A stretch of DNA of 64,000 nt from positions 27,080-91,079 of the IMG/VR virus record IMGVR_UViG_3300027782_000058, one strand, 5' to 3'. Position numbers and translations under genes: made by a program. Below the pieces are notes generated by a model that worked only from the letters and a program-made list of their open reading frames with translations, was not told the DNA's origin and did not search any database. Below are positions 2,862 to 33,896 of the stretch, in pieces (position 1 is the stretch's first letter; each line of letters opens with the position of its first letter). This DNA is from a virus.

Positions 2862-3057
2862 CCCTCACGAAGTACGGCCCCCACCTACGGGTGGGGGCTT
2901 TTCGTTTTCGCGCGACGGGAGGACTGGTAACCCTCTCGCCGAAAGGCCCTCGCCGAAAGGCGGGGGCCTTTTCGCGTGCGAATGCGGGCCGGGTGATGGG
3001 AGGTGGCGAAACTTTTTTTCCGGTCATCGCGCGCGAGGTCGCTACGCGCGGGACAAC

Positions 3058-3128
3058 TTGACACTCGGTAGGATGTTCGATAAGGTAGGACTACCGCCCA
3101 ACCGGGGCGCACAACCTAGGGAGTCGAA
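3058..3128 (+). promoter_or_regulatory. Promoter, stem-loop and RBS
   Basis: TTGACA-N17-TAAGGT; GCCCCAACCGGGGC; CCTAGGGAG. Confidence 0.8.
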
Positions 3129-5621: not shown

Positions 5622-5693
5622 TTGACAACGCTCGCAGAATCCGGCATACTAGATCCATGCCGCAGGGAGCGGCACTAATCAAGGGAGACTGAA
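5622..5693 (+). promoter_or_regulatory. Promoter, stem-loop and RBS
   Basis: TTGACA-N17-CATACT; GCCGCAGGGAGCGGC; AAGGGAG. Confidence 0.8.
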
Positions 5694-5831
5694 ATGACCT
5701 TCGCAATCGCCTACACCGTGAACACCGAGAACATCGTCCTGTCGGGCCTTGACTCGCAGGGGCTTATCGATGCCGTGCTCTACTCGGCTCAATACGGCCC
5801 CATCACGAACGTCACGGTGTCGTCCTACTGA
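5694..5831 (+). CDS. 45-aa protein (MTFAIAYTVNTENIVLSGLDSQGLIDAVLYSAQYGPITNVTVSSY), paralog of 3129-3377
   Basis: Not in the ORF track; full cassette frame; terminator at 5844-5874. Confidence 0.8.
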   Translation: MTFAIAYTVNTENIVLSGLDSQGLIDAVLYSAQYGPITNVTVSSY

Positions 5832-9995: not shown

Positions 9996-11660
9996 GTGGG
10001 AATCTTCCGCAGTGAGTCAGACAGTCCGTCGAGCGGACTCGTCCCTGTCATCTCGCCCGCACGCTCCCTCTCGTACTCGGCACCCCGCTCCCTGACGGCT
10101 GCCGCCGCCCAGATCAAGGTCAATGACAAGGGCGAGTTTGAGCAGTTCAAGTCACGCCGCAGCGCCGGTTCCAGCGCGTGGCAGGCAGAGGCTTGGGAGT
10201 ACTACGACGCCATCGGTGAAGTGAAGTACGCCTTCAACCTCGTTGCTTCCGTTGTCTCCCGAATTCGCATCTACTCGGCCATCGTCGAGGATCCCAGCCA
10301 GACTCCCGTGTCCGTCACCGCGTCCCCCAAGGTAGACGCGCGTCTGGCACAGGCCGCAGAGCGCGCGCTTGACCGCCTGACCAGCGCCTACGGTGGCCAG
10401 CCCGGACTCCTGCGCGACGCCGCGCTGAACCTGAGCGTCGCAGGCGAGTGCTACCTCATCCAGATCCCCGCCCAGATCAGCACCGGCACCCCCGAGTCGT
10501 GGGACATCCGGAGCATCGACGAGGTGAAGACCGACCCGCGTGGCGGGTACTCGGTAATCGGACGCCGTGAGGCCGCGAACTCCAACCAGCAGTCAGGTTC
10601 CGCTCGCAGCCTAGGCTCCAAGGCGTTCGTTGGTCGCATCTGGCGCTCGCACCCCCGCTACTCCGACGAGGCTGACTCGTCCCTGCGCGGCCTTCTGGAC
10701 CTGTGCGCCGAACTCCTGCTGCTCAACCGCACCTTCCGCGCCACCGCACGCAGCCGCCTCAACGCTGGCGCGCTCTACCTGCCTGACGGCTTGTCCGTCG
10801 CGGCTCAGGGCGACCCAGACATCTACGAGGATGACTCGGACCTGAACCCTCCGTACACGCAGGAGGAGGCTGAGGACGAGTTCGAGGAGCAGTTGATCGA
10901 CGCGATGACGACGCCGATCCGCGACGAGGAGTCCGCCTCCGCCGTCGTGCCGCTGATCATTCGCGGTCCTGCCGAATTGGGTGACAAGATCAAGCAGTTC
11001 AAGTTCGAACGGTCCTTCGACCCGGCTCTGGCCGAGCGCTCCGACCGCGTGCTTGAGCGCATCCTGCAGGGTCTGGATGTCCCCAAGGATGTCATCACGG
11101 GGCTGGCGAACGTCAAGTACAGCAACGCACTGCAGATTGACGAGAGCCTGTACAAGGCTCACATCGAGCCGCTGATGCTGCTGATCGTTGACGCGCTGAC
11201 CGTCGTCTACCTGCGTCCCTACCTCGTAGCCTCCGGCTTCGCCCCCGACGAGGTTGACCGGATCGTCGTCTGGTACGACCCCTCAGCCGTCTCCACGCGC
11301 AACGACCGCGCATCGGATGCTGACGCCGGGTACGACCGCTACGCCGTGTCACTCGACACTTGGCGTCGGGCGCATGGCTTCTCAGATGCTGACGCTCCCA
11401 CGCCCAACGAGTTGGCGATCCGCATGCTCGCAGAGCGCGGCACCCTGACCCCTGAACTCACCGAGGCCATGCTCTCGGCCCTCGCCCCTCAGGTCATGGA
11501 GGCCGTGCGCGCCGCTCAGCAGGGTGCCAGCGCCGGAGCAATCCCACCGGAGGTTCAGCAGTTGCTCAAGGCTCAGGGGCAGCAGCCCGGCGCAGCGCCA
11601 GAAGCCCCGGCTCCAGCACCAGCACCCGCACCAGAGCAGGGCGGTCAGCCCAATGCCTGA
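9996..11660 (+). CDS. Portal protein
   Basis: WQAEAWEYYDAIGEVKYA, LSVAGECYL, GRIWRSHPR and GLDVPKDV motifs as in cluster-B-type actinophage portals; first large gene of the head operon. Confidence 0.85.
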   Translation: MGIFRSESDSPSSGLVPVISPARSLSYSAPRSLTAAAAQIKVNDKGEFEQFKSRRSAGSSAWQAEAWEYYDAIGEVKYAFNLVASVVSRIRIYSAIVEDPSQTPVSVTASPKVDARLAQAAERALDRLTSAYGGQPGLLRDAALNLSVAGECYLIQIPAQISTGTPESWDIRSIDEVKTDPRGGYSVIGRREAANSNQQSGSARSLGSKAFVGRIWRSHPRYSDEADSSLRGLLDLCAELLLLNRTFRATARSRLNAGALYLPDGLSVAAQGDPDIYEDDSDLNPPYTQEEAEDEFEEQLIDAMTTPIRDEESASAVVPLIIRGPAELGDKIKQFKFERSFDPALAERSDRVLERILQGLDVPKDVITGLANVKYSNALQIDESLYKAHIEPLMLLIVDALTVVYLRPYLVASGFAPDEVDRIVVWYDPSAVSTRNDRASDADAGYDRYAVSLDTWRRAHGFSDADAPTPNELAIRMLAERGTLTPELTEAMLSALAPQVMEAVRAAQQGASAGAIPPEVQQLLKAQGQQPGAAPEAPAPAPAPAPEQGGQPNA

Positions 11661-12909
11661 TAGGAAGGCCCCTCCGGGGGACAGGATCAAAGGCTCTGAG
11701 AGCAATCGTCCGAAGAGTTCGGAGAGCCAGAGTTCCGCGCGTTCCATCGAGTTCTCCGAGGCAACCGAGAAGGCGCTCCAGAACAAGGTTGAGAAGAACA
11801 ACGAGGACGCTTCCACTGCCAAGAAGACATCGCTCGCCACCCTCAAGGCTGTGTACCGCCGTGGCGCTGGTGCGTTCTCGTCTAGTCACCGACCCGGAAT
11901 GACGAGGAACCAGTGGGCGATGGCCCGCGTCAACGCATTCCTTTATCTGCTGAACAACGGTGCCCCTGAGAACAAATCTTATGTGTCGGACAACGATCTG
12001 CTGCCCACTGGGCACCCCCGCTCGACGAGGAAGAAGGAGAGCATGAGCCTGAGCCCGAACTCCAAGGACGCCCGGATGATCTACTTCGGCGCTGATACGG
12101 AGGAAGCGATCTCAACCCGCGTCTCCGCCTACAACGCCAAGGCTCCCAAGGGCTTCGAGGTCTCGCTGCCCACAGCCCGCGCTGTCTTCCGTCGCGGCGC
12201 TCTGGCGATGACCGCCTCAGGCACCAGCCGCCGCACTCGCAACGACTGGGGCTTCGCCCGTCTCGATGCGTTCCTGTCCCTCGTGCGACACGGACGCCCA
12301 CACAACCCTTCGTACACTGAGGACAATGACCTGATTCCGCTCACTGCCAGCGCCGCTCGCAGCGAGGAGAACGCTGCAGGCACCGTCACTGGTGAGGAGA
12401 GCGATCTGGCCGGTGCTCTTCTGGACATCGCAGAGAAGTACGGCAAGTTCAACCAAGACGCCACCGGCATCTGGGCCGGGTACGTCCCTGCAGCGGAGAA
12501 CGAGGTTGCTGAGATCGGTGTGATGTGCGCCAACTGCGTGCTCTACCGTGGCGAGGACCAGTGCGCGATCATCGCGCTTCCGGTGGAGCCTGCGGGTCGC
12601 TGCCGTTTCGCGGTCATCCCAGATGGTGTCGTGAAGCCCGAGCCGCCCATCGAGGATGAGGTGCGCGCACTTCCGAATCTCATCTCGTTCATCAAGGAGC
12701 AGGACGACTACGAGTCGAACGAAGACGCGATTCTTGACATGACCGAGTACTCCGGTCTCGGCTATGACGCGGAGCCTGCCATTCGTGCTGCGTGGATTCG
12801 TGCCACGAATGATGACTCAGATCCATTCAAGCGTGCATTATCTATGGCAGAATTGACAGACCAAAGCATTGACGCCGACCTACTGCCCCGCTTTGAGAAG
12901 GGTGTCTAG
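11653..12909 (+). CDS. Head-region protein: two DUF5824-like repeats plus a HiPIP-like 4-Cys motif
   Basis: LKAVYRRGAGAFSSSHRP...QWAMARVNAFL with a second degenerate copy; CANC...C...C; ATG 11653 overlaps the portal stop. Confidence 0.75.
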   Translation: MPDRKAPPGDRIKGSESNRPKSSESQSSARSIEFSEATEKALQNKVEKNNEDASTAKKTSLATLKAVYRRGAGAFSSSHRPGMTRNQWAMARVNAFLYLLNNGAPENKSYVSDNDLLPTGHPRSTRKKESMSLSPNSKDARMIYFGADTEEAISTRVSAYNAKAPKGFEVSLPTARAVFRRGALAMTASGTSRRTRNDWGFARLDAFLSLVRHGRPHNPSYTEDNDLIPLTASAARSEENAAGTVTGEESDLAGALLDIAEKYGKFNQDATGIWAGYVPAAENEVAEIGVMCANCVLYRGEDQCAIIALPVEPAGRCRFAVIPDGVVKPEPPIEDEVRALPNLISFIKEQDDYESNEDAILDMTEYSGLGYDAEPAIRAAWIRATNDDSDPFKRALSMAELTDQSIDADLLPRFEKGV

Positions 12910-12911: not shown

Positions 12912-15900
12912 GTGAAGGACAACATCGATGGCGCAAGCGCCAAGTCGACAGCCCGACTCAATGCTCGGATTGATGCGCTGGTCGCGTCTGCGAATGATGG
13001 AACCCCGGCCCAGCGTCGGGTGAACCTTGGTGCTGCCCGTGAGGTGGTCCGACGCTCGCTGAAGTCAACACAGGGTAGGGCATTCTCTCAGCGCGAACAC
13101 ATCGCACTGACAGCGCTCTCGCACTTCATCACTCTGGCACAGCGTGACAAGTCAGTCGCGCTCTACCCGGCCAACACTGACCTTCTTCCTCTCGGCCACC
13201 CCCGGTCGACCGCTTCCAACGCCCTCACAGCCTTCGCCCTCCGCGAGCACCGCGCTCGCTGGTTTGCCGCTGACCACCGCGTCTTGGACGAGCACCGCGC
13301 GCTGGTTGCGTCTGCTCTTGCTGCTGAGTACGGCTCGATGGAGCACTTCTACGCGCTCTCGATGCTGGAGCAACTGAACGATGGCTCCGCCCTCGTTGCC
13401 CTCGTTGCATCCTTCGGTGACGGCAACTCGCGTGCTGCCCGTTCGGCTCGTGCCCGTCGTCAGCGCCGCGACCGTTTCGGTCGATTCGCCTATCAAGGCG
13501 GCGGTCTCCGCAGCCTTCTCCGCTTCGGAGACGGCAGCGTTCGCTCGCTCACTGGTAGTTATGTCAAGGACTCTGATGACGGTGAGTCGTTTGATGTCGA
13601 GACCCCGGACGGAACCCTCTACCGGATCCCAGCGAGCAAGGCCGAGTCTGTCAAGGCCGTACTTTTTGACAGTCCCGATGGCTTCAGTCCCATGCCCGCC
13701 AAGTATGACTCATCTGATCCGATCATCGACGTTGCTGACCTTGTCAAGATTGACATGCCATCCGGCTACATCGAGAAGTCTCGCGACAAGGATGGATCGG
13801 TCACATACGGTCTGGCCAATGGTGACGACTACCTGATTCGTGCGACTCCTGCAGGCAACGGCACGACTGCGTACGAGGTCGTGCGGAATGATGGCAAAGA
13901 CACCCCGGTTGGTCTTGCCAGCAACTGGTCTGACGTACACAAGATGGTTGTGCAAGACGGCAAGAAGGCCAACCGCGAGGACGCCGCCAAGGCTCGTCTT
14001 GAGGGCAAGTCCGGTCCTGAGTCTGACTACCTAGACTTCCTTCCCGATGTCAACATCGCGGCCAAGGATGAGGGCAGCGAGGTTCGTCGTCAGGCACAGT
14101 CGATCATGGACTTCTTCGAACTGGATGAACTTCCAGATGGAATGTCCGCCCAGCAACTGGCCGACCGCACACGTCTGAACGCTGATGCTCTCAAGGATGG
14201 CTCGCTCAAGGGCGGCGAAGACCTCGCTCAGGACTTCTACGACGCTGCTGACGCCATCGAGCGCAAGTCTGGTCTCGCCAAGCCCGAGAAGAAGGCCGAC
14301 CTGACCCCCGCTCCCTCCACTGCCCCAGCCCCCGAGGCCGGTAAGTGGGAGCCCAGCGACACCCGCATTGACCTGCCCTACAAGGAACCGATCATCGGCC
14401 CGGACGGCAACCTGACCGGAGAGTACAAGGACGGAACGGCGAATATCGTAGACATCAATGGCCGCAAGGTCGTGGTGGTGGATATCAACGGAACTCCTGT
14501 CCCCTTCTACCTGTCTTCCGGCGACGGCGGCAAGAAGGATGTAGAGGCTGGTAAGTGGTACCCCTTCTTCGGCTGGGGCATGGACGGCTGGATGAACAAG
14601 GGTAAGTCCGACGAGATCAACGACTACTACGGGTCTCCTGAACTCCGGGCGCAGGCCGAGTGGCTCGACGCGAACATCGGAGATATCCGAGACGACAAGA
14701 GCATCCCGCGCGATTCCTCAAGTCAGGGCAACCTCGACATGTGGATCAACGATCACGTTGGTCTCAAGCCTGCATCCAACGACACCCCCACCACACGCAC
14801 TGAGTTCGACGCAAACGTCGCTGAGATCAAGCGTCGGATTGAAGCAGGCAATGGTGGCTCCAACAAGGAGCAGGCCCGCCTAGATGCCACTCCTACTCCA
14901 GAGTCAGGAGGCACATCGGCCTCACCGGAGCAGATCGCCGAACTCCGCAGGCTGATGGACGAGCGTAATGTTCGTGATAACGTTCCCGATCTTGCCGATG
15001 GCATCGAAAAACTGATCGCGGACAACACCCTAGGTAAGGAACAAGCAGACCGGCTGATCAGTGGAATCAGGGAAAACCGGGACGTGTTCCCTGAGCCCGA
15101 CACCACTCCCGAGAAGGCTCCCAGTAAGTCCGACGACTTCAACGCACCTGAGGGCGCTTACGCGCTGAACCAGACTGCAATCGACAACTTCGAGCCTCAG
15201 GGTCGCGTAGATGAGAGCAGTACGGACTTCACCGACGACCCCTCCGAACTCGCGCAGCGGTTCGACACAGATGACCTGACGGCTGCTCTTGAGCAGGCCC
15301 TCATCGGTGAGGACGGCGCTGACGGCGACGTTCAGGGCCGTGGTGCTGGCAATCTCCAGTTCAACAGGGGAGACGAGTGGGTTCCTGCTGAGGCGCTTTA
15401 TCAAGCACTCGACCAGCAGGACGAGGATGCCCGCGCCATCGCCAACGATATCTACGACAGTGCGCGCAAGGGTCAGATGAAGGAGCAGGCCCGCCTTGAC
15501 GGTGCTCCGCTTCCTGAGAAGGCGACCAAGGATGAGACTCCCGTCTCTGCCCCCGAGAAGCCAGCGGCGCAGTCTGAGATGAAGCCTCTTAAGGAACTGA
15601 AGAAGGGAGATGTGGTTCGCTTAGAGGACGGCACTCTTCGCACTGTCTCTGAGGTCTATGGCGTCCGTAGTTACAATTCGAGGACCAACAGTTTCGATGG
15701 ATCCACCGAGGTCGAATTCACTGACGGCTCTACCATGCGTCGTTCTAACGAGGATGCGCGGAACAAGCCTGACTTCGAGGTAGTTTCGTCCGAGTCCGAG
15801 TCCGGCGTCAACATTCCAGAGAATCTCCCTAGCCTGCTGGAAGACCTGTCTCCAGAGGACCGCGCTAACTACGAGCAGACCGGCGACTACCGTCCCTACC

Positions 15901-18900
15901 TGCCCGAGAACGCAGACATTCCTGACTACCCGTCTTCCATGTACCAGATGGATCAGTCTCCTCTGTCGCCAGAAGAAATTGGCCCGCTGGCGGAAGACGC
16001 CCCGCAGGGGTTCGACAACGACCCGATGCGTCTGGCAACGGAGTACAACTCTGAGACGCTCACTGAGGAACTCACCAATGCTCTGACCGGCGATAACGAG
16101 CGCGACCTAGGCTACGGCTACTTCGGCTACACGGATGAGAATGGCGAGGAGTGGGCGGGCAACATCCCCGCCGAGGCCATCCGTGACGCGCTTCAGTTGC
16201 AGGGTGTCAACACTGATCAGATCGTTCAGGATGCAATTGACAAGACAGCCAAGGCCCCAGAAGGAGTAGAAGTAGACGTACCAGAAAAGCCATCGCGTGA
16301 GCCTTCAGCAGAGCCTCTCACTGATGTCCGGTACAGCGATGCGATCCTGCTGTCCAACCCTGAACTGCAGAACTCCATCGACGCTGCCCTTGAAGATGCC
16401 ATGAACGAGGGCCGCAACATCGGCAGGAACGCCACTCGCTCCTCTGCCAATCGACTCGAAGTCCTGCTGAACGAGCAGGCCATGCGTCGGGCTGGCGCAT
16501 CTCGCGCTGATCGTGTGAAGGCTCAGCGTCTGCTGGAGCAGATTCAGGCCCTGCGTGACACCAACATGCCCGCTGACTTCAGCAAGCCCTCGATGCGTGG
16601 CGGTAAGAAGGATCAGGACAAGGAGAAGAGCCTTGTCGATCAGTTCAACGCCATCCCCGGCGTAAGCCAGCAGCGCTACAGGCTCGACACCCCCAGCAAG
16701 ACCGTCGAGAAGCAGGGTGGCGTACCCAGTCTCTACGCTCCGTCAACAATTGAGGTCGCACCCGGCCTCAACTGGGAGCAGCGCGATAATGGCCGGTCAA
16801 AGGGTGGAAAATTCGGATCCCAGTCTGGAAGCACCTACATCATCTCTGGCTCCCGCGCCAAGGATCTCAATCCTGACGAGATGAAGAAACTCGGATTCTA
16901 CTGGGATGAAAACTCTCAGTCATGGATCAACTACAACGGTGCTGTTGGCAATATGTCCTCCAAGGACAAGAAGAACATCACTGACTCCCTCAGCAAGTCC
17001 GGATTCGATGTCAACCCTGCATTCACCAATGGAGGCTTCATTCCTTCATGGCTCAGGGACTCCGCTGACGTTGTCAACCCGAAGATTGTTGAGACAGTGT
17101 CGGCTCCTAGGCCGCGTCGTCCTTCTCCCCCCGGTCGTCCGATCACGGATGGAAGGCTTCGCGACCTGCTGGAGCAGGCTGACGGTGACCCCAAGAAGTT
17201 CCGTGAACTTCTTGGTAAGGAGAACGTCCACGTCTTCGACTTTGAGACGACCGGCATCCGGTTCGACGAGAACGGGAACATGATCGACTCCGGTGAACCG
17301 TGGGCGATTTCGGTTGCGCGCTACAACCCGGCCACGGGTGAGATGGAGCAGAAGACCTTCTACATGAACCCCGGCCAGTCCATCAAGGACACTTGGGCTG
17401 GCGGGACGAATGAAGACGGCAGTCCTCGCGCCATTGACTCAGATGGAAAACCGCTCACTGACGAGTGGCTCGCACAGCAGCCTTCGCAGGCTGAGGCTCT
17501 GCAGGCCGCTCTTGATTTCATGGGTCAGGATCCGATCCTGTTCGGGCACAACTCAACCTTCGACCACGACACGTTCACCCGCAAGGCGGACGAACTCGGT
17601 CTGGACTACCGCCCGGCTGCCATTGGTGACACGATGAGCCTTTCTCAACTGGTGCATGATGGCGAGCAACTGCCATCGCACTCGCTCGGTTATCTGGCCA
17701 AGCATCACGGGATTCCCAGTCAGGGCACCGCGCACACGGCTGATGCTGACACCCGCACGACTGCTGCGCTGCTCGACAAGTTGCTCACGAAGGCCGAGCG
17801 TGCAGAACTCGGCATGACGCCGGAGAACCTCGACAGGTGGCAGGGTAAGAACGAGGATCGATACAACAAGGCACTGGCTGACTACAACGAGGCCAATGCC
17901 CCACGGGTAGCCACTGAGGCAGTCCTTGAGGCCGCTCAGGATCCGACTGAGGTTCCTTCTCCGGAAGAGACCTCTGCCCGCGTTGACAAGATGATCAAGG
18001 ACATGTCTGGCAACCCTGATGGTGCGCCTAACCCTGAGACAGACATCGTTGATGAATCATCAGATGGAGCCGAACCGCTTCCTAACGGTTACAGCCGTAG
18101 CAATCTGCATGAGTTGGCTCAGTCGGCACTGGATGAGTTTGATCGCAACAGTGATATCAACAGTTACACGCAGTTCACGCCTCAGGAGATCAAGGAGGTT
18201 CAGGACAAGATCGATGCTCTTCGTGAGATGTCCAATGACCCCTCGGTCAGCGACGAGCAGGTAGCCGCTGCACTGGATGACATCGCTGAAGACCTTGATG
18301 CAATGGTCAGCCGTCTCGGTGACCCGAACGACGACCGCACTCCTCTGCGAAACATCGACATTATCGAGAATCTCAACCGAGAGCGGGACTACGTCACCGA
18401 GACCGCAGACATGCTGCGCGCTCGTAACGGCGAGAACAAGCCGGAGCCGGAGTCCGACGACACCACCAACGAGGTGGATGACGCACAGGTCCGCGACCAG
18501 ATGGCTGGGGAGGCTGCCGGAATTCGCAACATCGTCAACGAGACTGGCAGCACTAACGCCGACCTAACTGATGAAGAGCGCCAGAGGTTCTGGGACTATC
18601 AGACTCGCCTTGAGGAGGTCATCGCTCTCGTTCGTGGCAACCGCAAGGACGAGATGGGTGACAGGGATCTGGCAACCTACGTCAACCGTGTGGCAATTGA
18701 CCTGAAGAATGACTTCGGCCCCGGTGGTGAGTTAGAGGATGTCGCGTACTCGCGCGGCATGGACCGCAACAAGGTTGAGAACATTCTTGATCTGGCGGAC
18801 AAGTTGGAAGTGCTCACCAACCGGCTGATGCAGCAAGTCTTGGATCGTGAGGGAAGTAAACCTCCCGCAGTCCGCACGCCTGCCATACCAAAGAGTGGTC

Positions 18901-21900
18901 CCGGCTCGAAGCCTGAGGCACCGACGAAGCCGGAAGACTCTGGACAACTCAAGCCGCTCAAGCCAGCCAACAACCCATCCCGAGATGAACTGATTGACAT
19001 TCGAAGTAATTTTGACAGCCTCATGGCGAACGAGACTGACTCTGAAATTATTACAATGGGATCAGATATTTCAAATGCATTGAACGATGTGCTAGATCTC
19101 ATCGAGGCCGATCCAGATGGCAAGAACCGCGAGACTGGTCGGTCACTGGACGCGCTGGCAGGAGACATTCAAGAGTTGGCAGATGTTGTCGAAGACGACA
19201 GGCTGAAGTCATTTGACGGACTACTAGACAGAATCCGCACTCTTTCACGCGCATATCGTCGTCGTAACCGCGAACAACGTGGGGGTAACGGTACTGCCCG
19301 TAACCGCCGTCAAACTCCCGCAGCGCCTAAGAGCGAGCCGGTTGACACCCCGGAGACGAAGCCGGGACCAGACGCTCCAACTGTCACTAGAAAGGCTCAG
19401 TTTACTAACCCGGACACTGGAGCACGGTCAGAGAACTGGACTCTCAGTAACGGTGACCAAATTATTGCTATTGATTCCGTCACTGGTAGTGGGATTGCCA
19501 CGGTTTACTATCACGATGATGAGCCTGAGGTCAGGCGTTGGGACACTGACAACTTCGCTGAGGCTCTTCAACTGCACCTCGCTGAGCGCAGTGGCAACTC
19601 CTCCTCCGCATCTCGGGAGATCACGCAGCCGAACCCGTCGAACCTCCCACCAGAGGTCAAGGTTGGGAAGACTGGCAAGACTGGTGTTGGTGCCAAGGTT
19701 CCCGACGCTCCCGGCGAGCGTGCGGTCGGCATCACCAACGGAGCCGACCTTCCCAGTGCGCCTCCTCCCCCGAACAGCGATGGGCCGGTAGGCCCGAACG
19801 GGGAGCGGCTGCTTCGTCGTGGCCGGGAGAATCGCAACTTCTGGGATCACCCGATCATGCAGAGTTGGGCGCGTCGTCGATTCCGCAAGCCGCTTGAGGG
19901 TCAGTTCGTCGACCGGAGCCGTGTGCCGATTGCCTACGGAGACCGCGTCGTACACACTAACCCGAAGGCCGCTCGTTCGACTCTTCGTCCAGACGGCACT
20001 CCAATGACAGGTGTTGTCCTCAACCGTCAGGACAATGTTGGTCGCGAGAATGGCCACAACCGTGACCACGTCACGGTTCAGTGGGAGAACGGAACAGTGT
20101 CACACTACGTTTCCCACAACCTGCAGATCGTCGGACTCACTGAGGCTGACACTGAGTGGCGTACCCTCGTGCATCCTGACGAGACTCCTGACACTCCTGA
20201 GTCTGAGCGTATCGACCTACCGGCTGGCTTCGACTGGAACCAGAAGCGTCGAGGAGCAGCGCCATCTGGACGTATGGGACCAAATGGCAGGCTATCTGGA
20301 GAGGGTCGTGGGCAGAACAACATCCCTGTCGAGGCCGGAGACGAGTCCACTCGCTTCGAGCGAGGCGAAGGTGTAGAGGGTCTGATCGCTGACTTCAACG
20401 GCGTACAGATTCAGGTCGGCGACCGCGTCTACCACCGAGGCAAGGTAGGATCACGTCGCGGGCTCACTGGCGGAACAGTGATCGGGAAGAAGTACATCGC
20501 CCGGTACCGCACGATCACGGACGAGAACGGTAACAAGAAGCGAGTCCGTGTCGGCTACGCCTACCAGCCTATCGTCCGCTGGGACAACGACCCCGAGATT
20601 AAGGAGTGGTCGGCCAATCAACTGATCGTCACGACTCCTGATGCTGAATCTCGGAATGTCTCAGATGCGCCGATCCCGACCCTTCGTCGTGAAGGACGCG
20701 GAGCGAGTTCTAAGTGGGTTCCTGACACTGAGGCACCGGACTACAACGCCGATTCGGCTAGTGGGTTCGAGCCGATCCCGGCAAACGGCGGAGGTTCTGG
20801 GGCTCCTTCGACTCCAACCCCCTCCCGCTCTCGCCGAGTCCAGCCCTCCGGAAATCGACCGGGATACGAGTTCGTTGGCTCTAGAGAAGTTCTCTTCATC
20901 GGAACGTCCGAGCAGATCAATCGTCTCATCGATAACTATGCTGTCGATGACCAAGAGGCGGAGTTGTTCCGGTCTGAGATCGTAGACGACACCAACCCCG
21001 ATGGCACGCAGAGTGGTAACGATCAGATTATTCTGTCAATTGACCAAGGCGTCACCAATAGTGGGAAGACACCCAGAGAGTACGTTGAGGGCGTTCTCGA
21101 CGAGACATTCGGTTCTGCCTCTTCAGGCACCAGCCCGACTTCCTCCACACCAAACGCCCCGGAAGCAGATACCTCCACTCCTGACGATGGAATGGTGGTG
21201 CAGCCTAAGGACAAGAACGGTCAGTTGCTCGACCTTGGTGACATTGTCGAAGCCAACAACGGCAAGCGAGGCATGGTTCGAGGCTTCACTCCAGACGGCA
21301 AGGTGCGAGTCAAGTACGAGGATGGCCGTTACGGCAAGTTGAATGCTGACAAACTATCTCGCACTGGCCAAACGACACGCGGTCCTGCTGACCCAACCGG
21401 CGCTGTCGGCGAACCCGTCGAGGGTGAGTTCGGTGAGTGGGGTGCCCGCGCTGAGAAGATCCGTGAGGCCAAGAACCGTGGTCCGGCAGATCTTACTGAT
21501 CTGATTCAGCGAGGTGATGATGCCCTACCTCCGGGCAAGACCCTCAAGGACTTGATGCAGGAGGTCTGGGGCCTTGAGCACAAGTACAAGGACAAGGACG
21601 GCAATGAACGAAGCCTACGGGCCGAGGTCACTGGCGCTCACGTCTCTCGCGGCAGGCAGATCTCGGTCTCGATGAGAATTCTTGATGAGAACGGTCGTGT
21701 GGTTGGGACGATGAGTCGCCAACTCAAGATGGATAATAACGGCAATCTGTCTGTCTACCACGCATATTTTGAGATCACTGACAGCAAGCGTCAGGGCACT
21801 GGCTTTGCAACGGCTATCAACCGCTACGCCGAGGACTTCTACATTGCTCAGGGCGTTCGAGAGATCGGTGTTCAGGCTGCTCTTTCGAACGGTGGTTACA

Positions 21901-22277
21901 CTTGGGCCAAGCAAGGCTTCGAGTGGGACCACCCACACTACGGGACTCCGTGGGCTGACCCTCTGAGGAGGCTGGGAGAGTACGGTCGAAGAGGAAACAT
22001 GTCCCCGGCGCTGAGGAAGGTCTACGATGACCTAATGTGGCGTTTCCGCAACCTAGACCCAAGTGATCCCAACTTCCCGACTCCGCAGGAAATCGTCATG
22101 TTCGGATGGACACCCGGAGCCACTTCTTGGCCCGGAAAGTCGATCCTTGTTGGATCTGGTTGGTATGGCGTCAAGCGTCTCAGGCCCGGTGGTCGCAGGA
22201 CCACTCAGGGCGAGCGCGATAATGGCAAGTGGTGGCATGACCAGATCTTCAGGCGGAACAACCAGAGGAAGGCGTAG
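12912..22277 (+). CDS. 3121-aa large polyvalent protein (DEDDh 3'-5' exonuclease, SH3/KOW-like repeats, C-terminal GNAT-like domain)
   Basis: FDFETTG / GHNSTFD / DTMSLS / AHTADAD (about 17220-17790); QGTGFATAI...AALSNGGYTWAKQGF (about 21750-21930). Confidence 0.85.
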   Translation: MKDNIDGASAKSTARLNARIDALVASANDGTPAQRRVNLGAAREVVRRSLKSTQGRAFSQREHIALTALSHFITLAQRDKSVALYPANTDLLPLGHPRSTASNALTAFALREHRARWFAADHRVLDEHRALVASALAAEYGSMEHFYALSMLEQLNDGSALVALVASFGDGNSRAARSARARRQRRDRFGRFAYQGGGLRSLLRFGDGSVRSLTGSYVKDSDDGESFDVETPDGTLYRIPASKAESVKAVLFDSPDGFSPMPAKYDSSDPIIDVADLVKIDMPSGYIEKSRDKDGSVTYGLANGDDYLIRATPAGNGTTAYEVVRNDGKDTPVGLASNWSDVHKMVVQDGKKANREDAAKARLEGKSGPESDYLDFLPDVNIAAKDEGSEVRRQAQSIMDFFELDELPDGMSAQQLADRTRLNADALKDGSLKGGEDLAQDFYDAADAIERKSGLAKPEKKADLTPAPSTAPAPEAGKWEPSDTRIDLPYKEPIIGPDGNLTGEYKDGTANIVDINGRKVVVVDINGTPVPFYLSSGDGGKKDVEAGKWYPFFGWGMDGWMNKGKSDEINDYYGSPELRAQAEWLDANIGDIRDDKSIPRDSSSQGNLDMWINDHVGLKPASNDTPTTRTEFDANVAEIKRRIEAGNGGSNKEQARLDATPTPESGGTSASPEQIAELRRLMDERNVRDNVPDLADGIEKLIADNTLGKEQADRLISGIRENRDVFPEPDTTPEKAPSKSDDFNAPEGAYALNQTAIDNFEPQGRVDESSTDFTDDPSELAQRFDTDDLTAALEQALIGEDGADGDVQGRGAGNLQFNRGDEWVPAEALYQALDQQDEDARAIANDIYDSARKGQMKEQARLDGAPLPEKATKDETPVSAPEKPAAQSEMKPLKELKKGDVVRLEDGTLRTVSEVYGVRSYNSRTNSFDGSTEVEFTDGSTMRRSNEDARNKPDFEVVSSESESGVNIPENLPSLLEDLSPEDRANYEQTGDYRPYLPENADIPDYPSSMYQMDQSPLSPEEIGPLAEDAPQGFDNDPMRLATEYNSETLTEELTNALTGDNERDLGYGYFGYTDENGEEWAGNIPAEAIRDALQLQGVNTDQIVQDAIDKTAKAPEGVEVDVPEKPSREPSAEPLTDVRYSDAILLSNPELQNSIDAALEDAMNEGRNIGRNATRSSANRLEVLLNEQAMRRAGASRADRVKAQRLLEQIQALRDTNMPADFSKPSMRGGKKDQDKEKSLVDQFNAIPGVSQQRYRLDTPSKTVEKQGGVPSLYAPSTIEVAPGLNWEQRDNGRSKGGKFGSQSGSTYIISGSRAKDLNPDEMKKLGFYWDENSQSWINYNGAVGNMSSKDKKNITDSLSKSGFDVNPAFTNGGFIPSWLRDSADVVNPKIVETVSAPRPRRPSPPGRPITDGRLRDLLEQADGDPKKFRELLGKENVHVFDFETTGIRFDENGNMIDSGEPWAISVARYNPATGEMEQKTFYMNPGQSIKDTWAGGTNEDGSPRAIDSDGKPLTDEWLAQQPSQAEALQAALDFMGQDPILFGHNSTFDHDTFTRKADELGLDYRPAAIGDTMSLSQLVHDGEQLPSHSLGYLAKHHGIPSQGTAHTADADTRTTAALLDKLLTKAERAELGMTPENLDRWQGKNEDRYNKALADYNEANAPRVATEAVLEAAQDPTEVPSPEETSARVDKMIKDMSGNPDGAPNPETDIVDESSDGAEPLPNGYSRSNLHELAQSALDEFDRNSDINSYTQFTPQEIKEVQDKIDALREMSNDPSVSDEQVAAALDDIAEDLDAMVSRLGDPNDDRTPLRNIDIIENLNRERDYVTETADMLRARNGENKPEPESDDTTNEVDDAQVRDQMAGEAAGIRNIVNETGSTNADLTDEERQRFWDYQTRLEEVIALVRGNRKDEMGDRDLATYVNRVAIDLKNDFGPGGELEDVAYSRGMDRNKVENILDLADKLEVLTNRLMQQVLDREGSKPPAVRTPAIPKSGPGSKPEAPTKPEDSGQLKPLKPANNPSRDELIDIRSNFDSLMANETDSEIITMGSDISNALNDVLDLIEADPDGKNRETGRSLDALAGDIQELADVVEDDRLKSFDGLLDRIRTLSRAYRRRNREQRGGNGTARNRRQTPAAPKSEPVDTPETKPGPDAPTVTRKAQFTNPDTGARSENWTLSNGDQIIAIDSVTGSGIATVYYHDDEPEVRRWDTDNFAEALQLHLAERSGNSSSASREITQPNPSNLPPEVKVGKTGKTGVGAKVPDAPGERAVGITNGADLPSAPPPPNSDGPVGPNGERLLRRGRENRNFWDHPIMQSWARRRFRKPLEGQFVDRSRVPIAYGDRVVHTNPKAARSTLRPDGTPMTGVVLNRQDNVGRENGHNRDHVTVQWENGTVSHYVSHNLQIVGLTEADTEWRTLVHPDETPDTPESERIDLPAGFDWNQKRRGAAPSGRMGPNGRLSGEGRGQNNIPVEAGDESTRFERGEGVEGLIADFNGVQIQVGDRVYHRGKVGSRRGLTGGTVIGKKYIARYRTITDENGNKKRVRVGYAYQPIVRWDNDPEIKEWSANQLIVTTPDAESRNVSDAPIPTLRREGRGASSKWVPDTEAPDYNADSASGFEPIPANGGGSGAPSTPTPSRSRRVQPSGNRPGYEFVGSREVLFIGTSEQINRLIDNYAVDDQEAELFRSEIVDDTNPDGTQSGNDQIILSIDQGVTNSGKTPREYVEGVLDETFGSASSGTSPTSSTPNAPEADTSTPDDGMVVQPKDKNGQLLDLGDIVEANNGKRGMVRGFTPDGKVRVKYEDGRYGKLNADKLSRTGQTTRGPADPTGAVGEPVEGEFGEWGARAEKIREAKNRGPADLTDLIQRGDDALPPGKTLKDLMQEVWGLEHKYKDKDGNERSLRAEVTGAHVSRGRQISVSMRILDENGRVVGTMSRQLKMDNNGNLSVYHAYFEITDSKRQGTGFATAINRYAEDFYIAQGVREIGVQAALSNGGYTWAKQGFEWDHPHYGTPWADPLRRLGEYGRRGNMSPALRKVYDDLMWRFRNLDPSDPNFPTPQEIVMFGWTPGATSWPGKSILVGSGWYGVKRLRPGGRRTTQGERDNGKWWHDQIFRRNNQRKA

Positions 22278-22285: not shown

Positions 22286-23212
22286 ATGAACAGCAAGCAG
22301 CGCTCCGCCAATGCGGCGAAGGTCTATCAGGACTGGATCAAGGCAAATCCGAAGATGGACCCGGACAACCCGACTCCGGAGCAAGAGAACGACTACTTCA
22401 TGCGTCTCTACGAGTCGGATCCTGATGTCGCAGGCAAGGGATGGGCTGATGCCGTATCCAAGATGAGCGAAGAAGAGATCACACAGTATTTGGACGATCA
22501 GGAGAAGGCATCTCCCGAGACAGCAAACTCCTTCCGTGTACAGGCTCTGATGGCGGCTGTAGATGAGTCGACCGACGAACTTGTTGGTCTGGTGCTATTC
22601 GTTCCATCATCTGGAACAAAGGGTCTAGAGACCGAATGGGTTCGTGTCGATGGTGAGTGGGTTCCCGAGAGCGTCAGCCCTCTGGCCGATATGTCAGAAG
22701 ATGATCTGGTCTACTACCCAGTAACGGACGACTACATCTTAATCTATGATGGAGGATCACGGTCCATCGAGGACGCGATGAGCCACAAGACGGAGATCCC
22801 TGAGCCTGTTGCGCCAGTCTCGTCACCCATCACTGCCGCAGCCTTCTCATGCCCGGCTCCCACGCAGGACATCCCTCTCAACCTAGCCAATCGACAGAAG
22901 GCCATTGATGGCGCTGGCTACGGACCGATGAATCCAACACGCCCGAATGAGCAGTTCTGGCAGGCAAAGGCAGACCGTTGGAGCACCACTGTAGAAGAGG
23001 CTAAGTCGTCCAAGTGCGGCAATTGTGCAGCATTCATTATCACTGCTTCTATGAGAGAATGTATCAATCAAGGGCTAGGCGATGACGCGGACTCTTGGAA
23101 CGTGATCAACGCTGGTGATCTCGGATACTGTGAAGCATTCGACTTCAAGTGCGCTTCTGAGCGGACTTGTGACGCATGGATCGTCGGCGGTCCCATTACT
23201 GAGGAGAAGTAG
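22286..23212 (+). CDS. Head-region protein with a C-terminal Cys-rich domain
   Basis: CGNCAAF...GYCEAFDFKCASERTCDAW; middle WVRVDGEW module. Confidence 0.8.
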   Translation: MNSKQRSANAAKVYQDWIKANPKMDPDNPTPEQENDYFMRLYESDPDVAGKGWADAVSKMSEEEITQYLDDQEKASPETANSFRVQALMAAVDESTDELVGLVLFVPSSGTKGLETEWVRVDGEWVPESVSPLADMSEDDLVYYPVTDDYILIYDGGSRSIEDAMSHKTEIPEPVAPVSSPITAAAFSCPAPTQDIPLNLANRQKAIDGAGYGPMNPTRPNEQFWQAKADRWSTTVEEAKSSKCGNCAAFIITASMRECINQGLGDDADSWNVINAGDLGYCEAFDFKCASERTCDAWIVGGPITEEK

Positions 23213-23214: not shown

Positions 23215-23535
23215 ATGGAAGAAGAGTTCACCTTCCCGTCGCAACTGTGGGTGCTTCTCGACGAAGACACCCCTACCAGTCTTGTCTTCATGACAGACGC
23301 TGGCGCTTGGGTGCGCGAGGATGGCGAGTGGGTCGAGTTCGTCATCGACGACAAAAACCCCAAGCGTCGCTTCGAGGGAATGCTGATCGCTCCCGTCGAT
23401 CCCCGGATCATCGACCTGTGGGATGCACAGAACGGCGAACTGTCAGACGCTGAGGTCGACCCCTTCGAGTACAAATGGAACCCGCCGTCAGTAGTCGGCA
23501 AGCCTGAAGATGCGGCTACGAAGCCGAGCAACTAA
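23215..23535 (+). CDS. Stand-alone WVREDGEW module protein
   Basis: GAGGAG RBS; similar to the module in the adjacent genes. Confidence 0.75.
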   Translation: MEEEFTFPSQLWVLLDEDTPTSLVFMTDAGAWVREDGEWVEFVIDDKNPKRRFEGMLIAPVDPRIIDLWDAQNGELSDAEVDPFEYKWNPPSVVGKPEDAATKPSN

Positions 23536-23592
23536 AGGAAGCAGCAGCAGTAGGCAGAATACTGAGCAATTATACTTTATTTGGAGCGTAAG

Positions 23593-24054
23593 ATGATGAT
23601 TCCGATGGACGGCCAGATGCATTCAGTACTCGTCGCTGCTCTTCGCCAACTCATGGCAGACACTTCAGCCGTGTACCAGCATGCTCATGGGTTTCACTGG
23701 AATGTCAAAGGTCCAGACTTCAGCCAGTACCACGCGCTCTTCGCTGCAATCTACGAGGACATCTACGGCAGCCTAGACCCGACAGCCGAGTGCCTTCTCA
23801 AGATCGGCGAGGACGCACCCTTCACCGCGAGTGAGTTCGCTGCGCTGTGCTCCATCGATGACATGACAACCACTGACACTCCTCAGTCGATGACTGAGAG
23901 CCTGTACATGCTCAACGAGGCGCTGATCCGATCCACCAAGACCGCGTTCGACGCTGCCATCGGATGCGACAACCAAGGTGTGGCCAACTTCCTCGCCGGT
24001 CGTCTTGACCAACTAGCAAAGTGGTCTTGGCAGTTGCGGGTTTCTGCTTCCTAG
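23593..24054 (+). CDS. dps: Dps / ferritin-like DNA protection protein
   Basis: HGFHWNVKGPDFSQYHALF...D..AE...KWSWQL Dps signature; ATG 23593 after GGAG; -10-like TATACT at 23571. Confidence 0.9.
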   Translation: MMIPMDGQMHSVLVAALRQLMADTSAVYQHAHGFHWNVKGPDFSQYHALFAAIYEDIYGSLDPTAECLLKIGEDAPFTASEFAALCSIDDMTTTDTPQSMTESLYMLNEALIRSTKTAFDAAIGCDNQGVANFLAGRLDQLAKWSWQLRVSAS

Positions 24055-24114: not shown

Positions 24115-27100
24115 GTGGGCTACTTCGGTAGGTCTGGCGATCTAGCGCTGTTCGTGTTCGACGAACTGGGTGTCGTCGTGGACGAGGGGCTCAACCTCGT
24201 CGTGGAGAAGGGGCATCTGGATGCCCTGATCGCTTCCGGCGACTGGAACACTGACGACTCTGAATACTCCAAGGCGGCAGAGGACATCGCGCAGGCGTCC
24301 ATCACAGATCTCGATATCCACGTCTTCTCGTCTAATGACCGTCTCTACACGATCCCGAAGTCCGTCCAATCGGAGGCCAAACGTGCTCTTGAGTGGAGGA
24401 AGACGCACAAGCGTGGCGGAACTCCAGTAGGACTAAACACCGCTCGCACTCTGGCCGAGGGTGGACAGATTGGGATCAAGAAGATCCGCCACATCGCTCG
24501 CTACTTCCCTCGTCACGAGGTTGATAAGCGTGGCCAAGGGTACAAACTGGGAGATAAGGGATTTCCCAGCAACGGTCGAATCGCATGGGCTCTCTGGGGA
24601 GGGGACGCTGCACAGAAGTGGGCAGCGACTATCGTAGAACGAGACGACAAGAAGAAAAAGTCTCTCACTGCTGATGGACTTCCTTCCGAGTACTTCGAGC
24701 CGAGCAGCAGTCGATTTGACTACTTCCGAATGGCAGAAAATCTGCCTGCTGAAGAGGCTCCGGAGTTCATGGCCCGAGTCCGTCTCGACGGGAGCGGGAT
24801 TGACCGCATCTACATGATGGATGCTGATGGGATCGTCTACATCTGGGACGACGGATCTTGGGATGACCTAGGTCTGTTCGAGCAGGACATCATGTCATTT
24901 GATGCTTTCTTCGACATGCCAGACGACGACGTAGACACCATGTACGTTCCAGTGGACGCTGAGGCTGCTGTCAAGATCTGCGCCCTCATCGATGCTGAGC
25001 CGTTCTCCCCCAAAAACACTAGCGACTTCTCTTCTGACGAAGAGATGCTAATGGTACATAGCGCCCTGTCCGAGATCGACTGGGACGAGGTCGACAGGGT
25101 TCTGGTAGCCGCTGGTGAGGCTCCTGCAGCAGATGCCCCCGCCGACCAGCCTCAGGGGGATGGCAACTACACCCCGGATGAGCGCTCCAAGAATGCGTCC
25201 AAGCAGGTTCGTGACGCGACTGGCAAATTCTCGAAGAGCGGATCACGAGTAGTTGTTGGCAATGACACGAACTCCCGTGGAACGATCACGTCGATCAATC
25301 CTGACACTCAGACTGTCGACGTACAACTGGACAACGGAAACACTGTCACCGTCCCCGGAACTGCCACTCAGGGGGAGGACAAGTTCGTAGACGTGTCGGC
25401 AGAGAACGAGACCAACATGACTGTCCCTCCGAGTGCCACCGCTGGCATTCTAGGCCAGCCTCGCGTCCCATCAAATCAGCCGAATGCTCGTATCCCCGGC
25501 ATGCTTCCCCCTCTCACTGGAGAAAGCATCTCTCTGCTGCTCAATGACTGGCCTGCATGGGTTGCAGCCGAGCGTGAGTTGTACCGGCAGACCGCTCCCA
25601 AGACTCCCCCGAACATCGGTCCGCGCCAGTACAACGTTCCCCAGCGGGACAACACTGGTGTAGATGTCCGAGACCCCTCCACCGGAGGCACTCGAAACGT
25701 CGCATGGAATCCGATGCAGGCTCCCAACGCATACAACCACCCCCTGCTGCGCGACTGGCTGAAAGGCAGCGACCGTCACGGCCACCCAAACCGTGGATGG
25801 TACAACCCAATCGTTCGCAGGAACGTGATCGAGCCCCGCAGGTACTTCTCCGCCGAGGTTCTCATCGCTGCTGGTGCCGAACATCCTGAGGTGCAGGAGA
25901 TCAAGAAGCCTGATCCCAATGCTCCCAAGGCAAAGTCAGGCCCTGACTTCACACCTGAAACCTCTGACGTTCCTCCCATGTACATGGCCATCGTCGCTCA
26001 GGATGATCCTCAAGCCGTCATGGACCTGATCTCTCTGGTTCCAGTGAACTCCCAGTCATCCACTCCGACCATCTTCCGCAGGGAGCCCGGTGAGTGGGTC
26101 AAGGATGATGCCATCCTCGCTGACCTGAACTCTCCCACGCCTCCACCAGTGGTTGTGCTGGACAACAAGAACCTAGCATCAGTGGTCGAGCAGATCGACC
26201 AAGCCTTGGTGGCATCTGCCTCTTATCTGCTTGACCGTCGTCTTGCTGATCTCTGGATCAGCGGTGCTGATGTCATGGCGATTGTCGCTGCTGGTGGCGT
26301 TGACCGCAACCGTGGCAACGCTGAGAAACTACGTCGGTACTGGACTGTTGGTGAGGGTGGAGCGAAGATCCGCTGGGGGACTGGCGGAGACTGGAAGCGC
26401 TGCGTTCGCCACCTGTCGAAGTATCTCGGTCCGCGTGCGAAGGGCTACTGCAACCTTCGTCACAAGGAGATGCTGGGCATCTACCCCGCTACCCACGCGA
26501 AGCGCCTCCGCGAGAACTCGATGGAGCAGCCTCTATACATGGAGGTTCCAGACTCTGACCTGCAGATGCCCATCGAGGCCATTCATGCTGAGGAAGACAA
26601 GAACTTTGATCACGAGTGGGAGCCAAACGAAGAAGTCGTTTGGATGCTCATCGAACTCAAGGATCTTGATGACGACACGTTCAGCCTAGTAGCCGCTGGC
26701 GGTCTAGACCGCAATCGCGGAAACGCTGAGGAGTTGCGCCGCTACTGGACGGTCGGCAAGGGTGGAGCCAAGATTCGCTGGAACACCAAGGGCGACTGGA
26801 CCCGCTGCACACGTCATCTTGCCAAGTACCTAGGCCCACGAGCCAAGGGCTACTGCGCTCTCCGCCACAAGGAGATGACAGGTATGTGGACCGGAGATCA
26901 GGCTCACCGTCAGATGTACGGGCGCAAGTCTTTCAGCACCGACTTCATCCTGCCTGAGCAGCAGATCATCGAGAACGCTGCACTGTCTGCTCAGATCGCC
27001 TCTGCCAAGGCCCGTATCTCTGGTGTCACTGCTTCCGGCAGCACTCCTGAGTACGGCTCTGCATTCTTCATCCCTCTGGTCATCCCTGAGCAGATGGAGT

Positions 27101-28611: not shown

Positions 28612-29371
28612 CGACGCTCCTCTGGATGCTGACGCGATCCTTGCAAGCATGAGGGCGCGTATCAGCGAGTTTAACAAGACTGAGGACATTATCCAGTCGA
28701 TCCCAGATGCGCCCAAGCCTGAGGATCTGATCAAGGCTGTAGAGAAGATCCAAAAGGTAGATGCTCCAACTCCTAAGAATCCTACAAATGTCAATAAAGA
28801 TGGAGTTCCGGAGGGCACTGTTGTACCTGCCCCTGCTGAGAGAATGACCCCAGCAGAGGCGCTCAAGTACACCGCTGAGACACAGCCACGAGATGCTCGC
28901 GGGCGATTTCGTCAGGTGCTGGCACGGATCAAGCAGGATCTAGGAACGTCTGGAAATCAGGATGCACTTGCCAAGATCGCTCAGGTCGAGAACCTTGACT
29001 TTGCAGGAAACTACACAGGCGCTGTAGAGGCATCTGGTGATCTTCTAAGCATTATTGATCGTCTTGACTCTGGAGCGCTAAACGCAACTTCACTAGAGAA
29101 TGTCCGATCTAGTGCTGCTGAACTTGGAAAAGTAATTTCTAATCTTCCTTTTGCATTTGGAGACGACAACGCAAAGATTCGCTATAGCGATGTCCCTCCA
29201 GCGCTGAAGAGTCTCATGGAAGAGATGATCAAGCGGGTTGAGGGAAAGATTGGCAAGAAGGATTCTGCCAAGGCCACTACCACTCTTAGGGAGTTCAAGT
29301 CTGGCGGTCTGTACATGAATCAAGCGCAGATCTCAAGCGAAATGTCAACGCTCCTGCGTTTGCTCACATAG
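28601..29371 (+). CDS. Hypothetical head-region protein with a QPRDARGRF motif
   Basis: GGAGGAG RBS; operon position. Confidence 0.8.
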   Translation: MPSNDAPLDADAILASMRARISEFNKTEDIIQSIPDAPKPEDLIKAVEKIQKVDAPTPKNPTNVNKDGVPEGTVVPAPAERMTPAEALKYTAETQPRDARGRFRQVLARIKQDLGTSGNQDALAKIAQVENLDFAGNYTGAVEASGDLLSIIDRLDSGALNATSLENVRSSAAELGKVISNLPFAFGDDNAKIRYSDVPPALKSLMEEMIKRVEGKIGKKDSAKATTTLREFKSGGLYMNQAQISSEMSTLLRLLT

Positions 29372-29538
29372 AATCATTCAACTGCAACAGATAGACAACT
29401 AAATAGCCCACAAATAATGTATCATTCAGTATCAGGTGGAGTGCCTCCGCACAGTTATGCGGCTGGAGTCCCTCAGCCTCGACTGATCATCGAATGGCGA
29501 ACGCTCTGTTCGCCACTGACTGCCCCGGAGGAGGGACA

Positions 29539-33882: not shown

Positions 33883-33896
33883 TCAACATTCTGAGA

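Follow-up and report, generated by a model that had tools for sequence, protein, structure and literature searches.

In the 64,000-nucleotide stretch analysed here (the window; positions 27,080 to 91,079 of IMG/VR virus record IMGVR_UViG_3300027782_000058), the head gene module of a large uncultured actinobacterial siphophage contains an open reading frame (ORF) for one acidic, cysteine-free protein of 3121 amino acids (P0001, 12912..22277; this ORF, called the giant below, and all features within it lie on the plus strand). It is a polyvalent-type head-module protein that combines a DEDDh exonuclease with a C-terminal GNAT-fold acyltransferase domain, and the first ~75 codons of the next gene look like that GNAT's own inhibitor. 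An initial annotation, made from the sequence alone, had proposed a polyvalent protein with an intact DEDDh exonuclease and a GNAT-like end. This description holds: the giant is a polyvalent-type mosaic encoded among the head genes, and both of its enzymes look intact. The picture we favor, to which we give a probability of roughly 0.6, is of a head-cargo protein that would be packed and ejected, with the exonuclease and the GNAT acting in the host and the partner silencing the GNAT. The narrower claim, that we are dealing with a polyvalent-type protein carrying a GNAT-partner cassette, is very probably right. What is new here is the GNAT-partner module of actinophages and its insertion across a gene boundary.

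The acyltransferase domain occupies the last 291 residues of the giant (aa 2831-3121, 21402..22274). An AlphaFold 2 (AF2) model of this segment has a predicted local distance difference test score (pLDDT) of 91.9 and a predicted template modeling score of 0.85, and all listed Foldseek matches to it at probability 1.0 are GNAT domains. A Foldseek-independent comparison with VIA gave GNATs for each of the best 50 chains, with NatD at the top (Z 8.5, 141 aa aligned, root mean square deviation 3.4 Å), and the GNAT family profile run against the PDB matched Naa30 (E 0.0011) with the alignment at the Q-G-x-G-F-A loop. The motif A loop itself, Q2961-G-T-G2964-F-A2966, fits the Q/R-x-x-G-x-G/A pattern; among 30 sequences its second glycine, G2964, is invariant and the first nearly so. 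The domain ends in a conserved extension of ~100 aa with invariant P, G and W residues. The GNAT-like end seen in the initial annotation is therefore borne out by model, Foldseek, VIA and profile search alike, and the modeled GNAT fold with an intact acetyl-CoA loop is a sound assignment.

Proteins with this GNAT domain are common. A HMMER scan of 1.84 billion cluster representatives recovered 1606 of them (614 at E<=1e-10), and the domain is frequently the last part of a protein 400-1000 aa long. In viral contigs it stands at the extreme C-terminus of 59 of 71 complete ORFs, the median ORF length being 644 aa. Ten sampled viral ORFs with the domain included four with MuF-type head-morphogenesis N-termini and three portal fusions, and gp5 of Microbacterium phage Jera, annotated as a "capsid maturation protease", is a minor-head (MuF-like) N-terminus followed by this GNAT. 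Pfam searches of ten short GNAT homologues and of ten partner ORFs (see below) gave nothing besides a DUF7178 match outside the domain in one protein and a DUF5956 match below threshold. Among cellular genomes, nearly all occurrences are in Actinomycetota. An IMG/VR scan found relatives of the giant's N-terminal header encoded in at least 314 loci; the synteny figures given here refer to 80 of these, 14 of which were read in detail. The GNAT domain is absent from all 80 giant-family loci, and among giants only P0014, P0015 and P0021 share it, internally. It is a widespread actinophage module, a cassette that travels on MuF-type and portal proteins. Two further observations concern its variants. 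Two metagenomic giants, P0029 (7601 aa) and P0040 (5246 aa), have up to 10 separate stretches that match the GNAT query, which suggests tandem arrays of the domain or of its N-terminal sheet. Many stand-alone or MuF-linked GNATs (P0041, P0066 and P0054 among them) have a conserved K-H-x-x-G-x-H-D-Q-K-x-H-G motif upstream of the domain, which could be a processing or targeting site.

The gene directly after the giant, g308 (308 aa, 22286..23212, plus strand), begins 9 nt downstream of it and belongs to no family as a whole gene. Its first ~75 residues (22286..22510, plus strand) form a small GNAT-linked module, a candidate inhibitor or immunity protein. Viral GNAT ORFs are directly followed by a small ORF, often overlapping the GNAT stop, and three partner families can be told apart: family 1 in 45 of 79 viral GNAT loci, family 2 in six and family 3 in four. 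Together these account for 55 of the 79 loci, usually in the directly downstream position, compared with none of the 80 giant-family loci without the GNAT, a zero that applies to each of the three families. The N-terminus of g308 belongs to family 2. It matches ORFs that directly follow GNAT genes in independent viral loci (L087-89, L107, L091-92; phmmer E 3e-8, 1e-5 and 3e-3; jackhmmer E 1e-27 to 1e-14), and nothing homologous to it occurs in the 80 giant-family loci that lack the GNAT. Pfam detected no domain in g308 or in the ten partner ORFs. In Jera (L003), gp6 (5644-5787, minus strand) is convergent with gp5, overlaps its end and matches family 3 (E 2.8e-9).

The C-terminal half of g308 is a Cys-rich domain (22826..23212, plus strand) with a CxxC...C...C pattern like that of high potential iron-sulfur proteins, a conserved head-module component that is not linked to the GNAT. 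Of 80 related loci, 41 encode it; five that were inspected (L023, L024, L037, L041, L073) have it joined to the front of the DUF5824 gene instead. The suggestion that the next gene could include an immunity function thus gains real support for the first ~75 residues, which are GNAT-linked and modeled on the acetyl-CoA loop. An immunity protein made of the whole gene was rejected, as only its first quarter is GNAT-linked.

We modeled a complex of the GNAT domain (alignment of 30 sequences) with residues 1-105 of g308 (alignment of four). The pair scored 0.72, compared with 0.24 for the best of three controls. The scoring mark is reached by 58 of 80 solved complexes and by two of 110 mismatched pairs, rates that apply only roughly here, the alignments being ours. 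At least 6% of contacts agree between the runs, and partner pLDDT is at least 51. The confident interface consists of fragment residues 131-137, 169-174 and 222-244, including invariant positions; on the giant these are aa 2961-2967 (the Q-G-T-G-F-A-T acetyl-CoA loop), 2999-3004 and 3052-3074. The model supports a partner that binds the GNAT over its acetyl-CoA loop, as an inhibitor would. Across the 13 relatives for which the data are complete, giant C-termini and the N-termini of the genes after them make up a single shared cluster pair, and the window departs from this pair at both places, a comparison that is only suggestive because there are few states and the sequences are related.

The second enzyme is a DEDDh (DnaQ/RNase T-type) 3'-5' exonuclease domain at aa 1400-1700 (17109..18011). 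This stretch matches Pfam RNase_T (E 8.5e-9) and, over aa 1437-1663, phrog_192 (E 1.4e-22); the DinG exonuclease domain in the PDB and the PolC/DnaQ NCBIfam models match it as well. The full DEDDh signature is present, with D-x-E in Exo I, D in Exo II and H-x4-D in Exo III. Because all five catalytic residues (D1443, E1445, D1551, H1608 and D1613) are in place and each is 98-100% conserved in 49 homologous domains, the exonuclease is intact at its catalytic residues, as had been supposed, and looks active.

The ORF at 12912..22277 is real and encodes one 3121-aa polypeptide. Its GTG start lies 2 nt past the upstream stop, with a Shine-Dalgarno-like box, GAGAAGGG, ~10 nt upstream. An assembly fusion artefact was considered as its source and ruled out, similar-sized relatives being common. 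The product has a mass of 342.6 kDa and is acidic, as was noted at the outset (isoelectric point 4.82, 524 D+E to 381 K+R). It contains no cysteine, where 18.9 would be expected because the window's other 22 long ORFs average 0.61% Cys (Poisson P ~6e-9). Most of these other long ORFs have several cysteines each; the sole other long Cys-free protein of the window is a 1525-aa ORF in the tape-measure position (36868-41445). The center of the giant (aa 1701-2239, 18012..19628) is acidic and poorly conserved, with a net charge of -12 to -20 per 100 aa in several blocks. None of the 24 giant homologues covers this region, and a tblastn search of 50,697 phage records with the middle third (aa 1001-2000) gave no match.

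The N-terminal header (aa 1-370, 12912..14021) defines the family: of 24 giant homologues, which range from 1860 to 4400 aa, 20 share these first ~370 residues. It consists of a helical domain followed by a beta-rich part, and its AF2 model has a pLDDT of 73. Residues 24-100 form a divergent DUF5824 domain (BLASTP E 7e-6 against the DUF5824 gene upstream), so that the upstream gene is a paralogue of the giant's first ~100 residues. Farther on, the header carries a Q-x-R-D-x-x-G-[RK]-F motif (aa 184-192, 13461..13487), preceded by GDGN..RS..A; across 20 sequences its Q184, R186 and G190 never vary. On the plus strand of the window the strict motif occurs just three times, always in head-module proteins; the other copies are in the protease fusion (aa 364-372, 25204-25230, plus strand) and in the protein at the scaffold position (aa 95-103, 28883-28909, plus strand). 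Cece gp68 has it too, as do three head proteins of DSL-LC01. Beyond the short motif, similarity between the header and the protease fusion is not significant by BLASTP (E 0.73). A small barrel after the motif (aa 183-250) gives KOW/Tudor-like matches in VIA at Z 5-6, within the noise range of the tool. A search of BFVD with the header model gave no clear match (the best, an XkdF-like protein, at E 4.7e-4 and TM 0.17), and VIA against 48,161 PDB chains gave a best Z of 6.3, the matches being small-barrel and helical-bundle look-alikes with no head-morphogenesis protein listed. On our reading the header is a candidate capsid-loading or docking element, and the motif a candidate signal for head targeting or docking.

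The gene order around the giant is strongly conserved. Upstream lie the portal gene (9996..11660, plus strand; phrog_776, E 4.4e-107) and a gene that encodes two DUF5824 repeats plus a Cys-rich C-terminus (~11660..12909, plus strand; Pfam DUF5824, E 3.8e-13); a search for literature on DUF5824 found none. Downstream of g308 follow the 106-aa gene g106 (23215..23535), which belongs to no family, a Dps/ferritin gene (23581..24054; Pfam Ferritin, E 1.2e-13), a 1498-aa protease fusion (24115..28611, plus strand; phrog_859/18402), a 256-aa protein in the scaffold position before the major capsid gene (28601..29371, plus strand) and the major head protein (29494..31449). The giant had been placed between the portal and the protease; the order is right, although it touches neither, with one gene intervening on the portal side and three on the protease side. 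In the 80 loci, where the flanks allow, the order is portal, DUF5824 gene, giant, g308, g106 and protease fusion. A portal match and an upstream DUF5824 gene are present in 80/80, portal identity being 73-77% in the 14 loci read in detail, and relatives of 1700-3800 aa occupy the same place in the head module. A "MuF position" had also been proposed, which is true only loosely because the giant is at +2 from the portal, with the DUF5824 gene in between.

Several side observations concern these neighbors. The Dps/ferritin-like gene stands after the giant here and directly after the portal in some relatives (L011, L079, L080), and is thus a mobile yet recurrent member of the head module. In the protease fusion only the last ~500 residues match prohead protease families; the N-terminal ~970 residues have phrog_2859 and phrog_6439 repeats, making this a second giant head protein. 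Cys-rich CxxC...C...C patterns are found both in the C-terminal half of g308 and in the C-terminal part of the DUF5824 gene (12540-12680), and the gene at the corresponding place in DSL-LC01 is annotated as a "high potential iron-sulfur protein"; together with the Dps/ferritin gene, these patterns hint at possible iron or Fe-S proteins inside the head module. At ~33000-36000 the G+C content drops, from ~0.60 across the head module to ~0.50 in the genes for the tail and those beyond it, a sign that the virion operon is a mosaic whose two halves differ in origin.

Relatives of the giant differ mostly toward their C-termini. Most of the 20 that share the header also have the duplicated module described below, 15 relatives have the exonuclease, and the C-terminal halves differ between homologues, some having a NUDIX or a PI3K/PI4K-like kinase signature. 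The analogues in cultured phages are Microbacterium phage Cece gp68 (1654 aa) and an Actinomycetia phage DSL-LC01 protein (3289 aa), both annotated as hypothetical. A megablast search with the head module found two short patches only, in Cece and DSL-LC01. Related phages are large (130-190 kb). The source record is 91 kb, with an estimated completeness of ~54%; no integrase was found in it, and there is no sign of a temperate lifestyle.

Three further elements of the giant had been described beforehand. The PFYLSSG/GKWYPFFG domain (aa 470-660, 14319..14891) is real: it matches phrog_32390 (E 4.7e-7) and is 37% identical to Cellulophaga phage phi17:2 gp039, a 1957-aa "structural protein" whose label is an annotation by similarity to phi4:1 gp38. 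It is also 42-54% identical to parts of other giant proteins, where it takes other positions, and it exists as stand-alone proteins of ~178 aa. Two of its carriers are P0022, which has ART-PolyVal, LPD38 and DUF7178, and P0024, which has LPD39. The domain is a self-contained unit that is mobile between giant proteins. Neither the domain nor a stand-alone homologue gave a usable match in the ESM Atlas, and its profile found nothing significant among PDB sequences (best E 0.033, a ZapA coiled coil). The duplicated module is likewise confirmed, with copies at aa 730-880 (15099..15551, kept in 19 of 24 homologues) and aa 970-1120 (15819..16271) that align pairwise at BLASTP E 2e-10 with 28% identity over 120 aa; a self-BLAST of the giant at default settings misses this duplication, which was found by pairwise comparison. 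As for the four SH3/KOW-like GD.V repeats, all four motifs are present (aa 899, 2343, 2503 and 2776), and the last three, putative small beta-barrels in a region at 19629..21401, are related to one another. In a five-sequence database the match between repeats 2 and 3 reaches E 1e-5 (29% identity, 73 aa) and that between repeats 3 and 4 is weak (E 1e-3); repeat 1 showed no clear relation to the other three. This part of the description is confirmed only in part. Residues 2242-2605 are shared with P0002, and shorter parts with P0012 and P0013.

The giant resembles polyvalent proteins in architecture and context, without having their named domains. Like the polyvalent proteins of Iyer, Burroughs, Anand, de Souza and Aravind (2017, J Bacteriol; PMC5512222), it joins unrelated catalytic domains, here a DEDDh exonuclease and a GNAT fold, in one polypeptide, and it is encoded among the virion genes of a portal-terminase phage, flanked by the portal, protease and major head protein; its PFYLSSG domain moreover recurs in proteins with ART-PolyVal, LPD38 and LPD39. 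Unlike them, it has no Pfam LPD, ART-PolyVal, MuF, zincin or ArdC domain of its own, and its header is specific to its family. GNAT is listed among the protein-modifying cargo of polyvalent proteins in that paper, the main text of which does not describe a DEDDh exonuclease as one of their domains. A relation between the giant's GNAT and the solo GNAT cited there, Mycobacterium phage Alice gp113, was tried and rejected (hhalign probability 0.2%). T4 Alt and N4 virion RNA polymerase, summarized in the same paper as packed enzymes delivered with DNA, offer a working model of a head-packed enzyme; they have no sequence or fold relation to the giant, whose own delivery is conjectural.

The MuF polymorphic toxins of Jamet et al. 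(2017, BMC Biol; PMC5576092) provide a second comparison. As in those toxins, the GNAT cassette elsewhere ends MuF-type or portal proteins and in most loci has a small ORF directly downstream, and toxin-immunity pairs are called in that study by the same logic of a C-terminal enzyme and a downstream ORF. The window offers both parts, a C-terminal enzyme domain and a member of a partner family at the start of the next gene. It differs in its carrier, a non-MuF giant of 3121 aa that is encoded at +2 from the portal, in the fusion of the partner to a further gene, and in showing no sign of a temperate phage. The main text of the study mentions no GNAT or acetyltransferase. GNAT toxin-antitoxin systems (TacT-TacA, AtaT-AtaR) share with the giant the GNAT fold (VIA: TacT2, 7ak7_B, Z 7.0; AtaT, 6gtp_A, Z 6.9) and a small cognate protein, predicted here at the cofactor and active-site cleft. 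These toxins score no better than N-terminal or aminoglycoside acetyltransferases against the giant's GNAT. In TacAT and AtaRT the antitoxin is encoded upstream and has a DNA-binding domain, whereas the partner here is downstream with no DNA-binding domain detected; the giant's GNAT also has its conserved ~100-aa C-terminal extension.

As we picture it, the header, with its DUF5824-like helices, GDGN..RS..Q-x-RD-x-x-G-R/K-F motif and small barrel, would dock the giant inside the procapsid, and the protein would be ejected together with the DNA. In the new host the exonuclease would trim or destroy nucleic acid, which could be DNA ends, host RNA or DNA, or signaling oligonucleotides; nothing in the evidence discriminates among these targets. 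The GNAT would acylate a host target, and in the producing cell the partner would block the cofactor cleft of the GNAT until the enzyme is packed. Indirect signs of packaging are the motif shared by head proteins, the lack of cysteine and the GNAT fusions to portal and MuF proteins. More tentatively, and with the odds somewhat against it, one may extend this picture in three ways: a swappable "effector plus safety-catch" slot may be made up of the C-terminal end of these giants and the opening codons of the gene that follows; the GNAT and its ~75-residue partner may be an undescribed and very widespread (>1600 clusters) toxin-immunity-like module of actinophages that rides on portal, MuF and giant cargo proteins; and the GDGN..Q-x-RD-x-x-G-R/K-F header may be a general capsid-loading signal in the lineage.

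A number of points weigh against this picture. That the giant or its close relatives are packaged and ejected is something we infer. A protein of 343 kDa with a net charge of ~-143 is an odd companion for packaged DNA. The header has no recognizable fold match in BFVD or among the PDB chains, and its motif is short, with a role that is a guess. Pfam finds no MuF domain in the giant at E up to 1, PF04233 has no match in the 91-kb record and the PHROG head-morphogenesis families do not match the giant; neither these profiles nor its position, which is not +1 from the portal, put it in the MuF/SPP1 gp7 family. The substrate of the GNAT is not readable from its fold. With regard to the partner, one of three complex runs scored 0.01, a known partner family accompanies only 17 of 69 GNAT loci in bacterial genomes (3-kb flanks), the similarity between families 1 and 2 is only marginal (hhalign E 0.0044), and fusion to a conserved head-module domain is atypical of an immunity protein.

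Some of these results suit other explanations. The giant might have an assembly or structural role only, as an internal scaffold, core or head-filler processed by the neighboring protease, with enzymes that act on phage components in the producing cell (trimming DNA ends, acylating the capsid). Its place between portal and protease, the motif it has in common with the protease fusion and the scaffold-position protein, the resemblance of its long acidic, poorly conserved linkers to scaffold and internal peptides, and the almost constant tie of the GNAT domain to MuF or portal assembly proteins would all agree with this. However, the C-terminal half varies among close relatives, with kinase-like, NUDIX and GNAT ends, which fits conflict cargo better, and a linked partner predicted over the cofactor site points to an activity that needs to be shut off in the producing cell; we consider a purely structural role unlikely. 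The giant might also stay out of virions altogether, as a late-expressed multi-enzyme of the cytoplasm whose place in the head operon is coincidental; that the searches detected no MuF or other known capsid-targeting domain speaks for this reading. The strict retention of its place near portal and protease where flanks allow (80 loci), the motif common to head proteins, the absence of cysteine and the recurrence of the GNAT on portal and MuF proteins make this improbable.

Two more alternatives concern the GNAT and its partner. They could be a polymorphic toxin of the MuF type and its immunity protein, set free by lysis or by prophages and aimed at competing bacteria, in which case the GNAT would not be an effector that the phage injects into its own host; a head-protein N-terminus, a C-terminal enzyme and a small downstream ORF are the architecture of the toxins in PMC5576092, and the domain is common in actinobacterial chromosomes, presumably in prophages. 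We hold this to be a poor explanation of the window, where the partner, joined as it is to a head-module protein, does not stand as an immunity gene of its own, where no integrase was found in the record at ~54% completeness and where the relatives are large phages of 130-190 kb. There is a better though still small chance that the partner is no inhibitor and instead serves as a packaging adaptor, a chaperone or the substrate of the GNAT. It is, after all, fused to a conserved head-module domain, and a complex model gives contact, not function. In the model, however, the partner contacts the loop that would hold the pyrophosphate of acetyl-CoA, along with residues of the catalytic cleft that never vary, and the known GNAT antitoxins of the TacA-TacT and AtaR-AtaT pairs work in this mode. 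We hence prefer a head-cargo protein with an inhibited acyltransferase over these alternatives.

By current thinking a phage opens its attack on the host with polyvalent proteins, of which, to our knowledge, almost none has been tested. The giant provides several handles for doing so. A header motif found in three head proteins is a candidate capsid-loading signal; an intact exonuclease is typical of a family present in hundreds of uncultured actinophage contigs; and the GNAT with its predicted inhibitor is a pair met again on the MuF and portal proteins of phages in culture, among them Jera, in which genetics is possible. If the pair is not a toxin with its immunity protein, the giant is one more member of a giant family. 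If it is, an acyltransferase class would be added to the effectors that phages deliver, and an effector and its safety-catch would be able to move jointly across a gene boundary.

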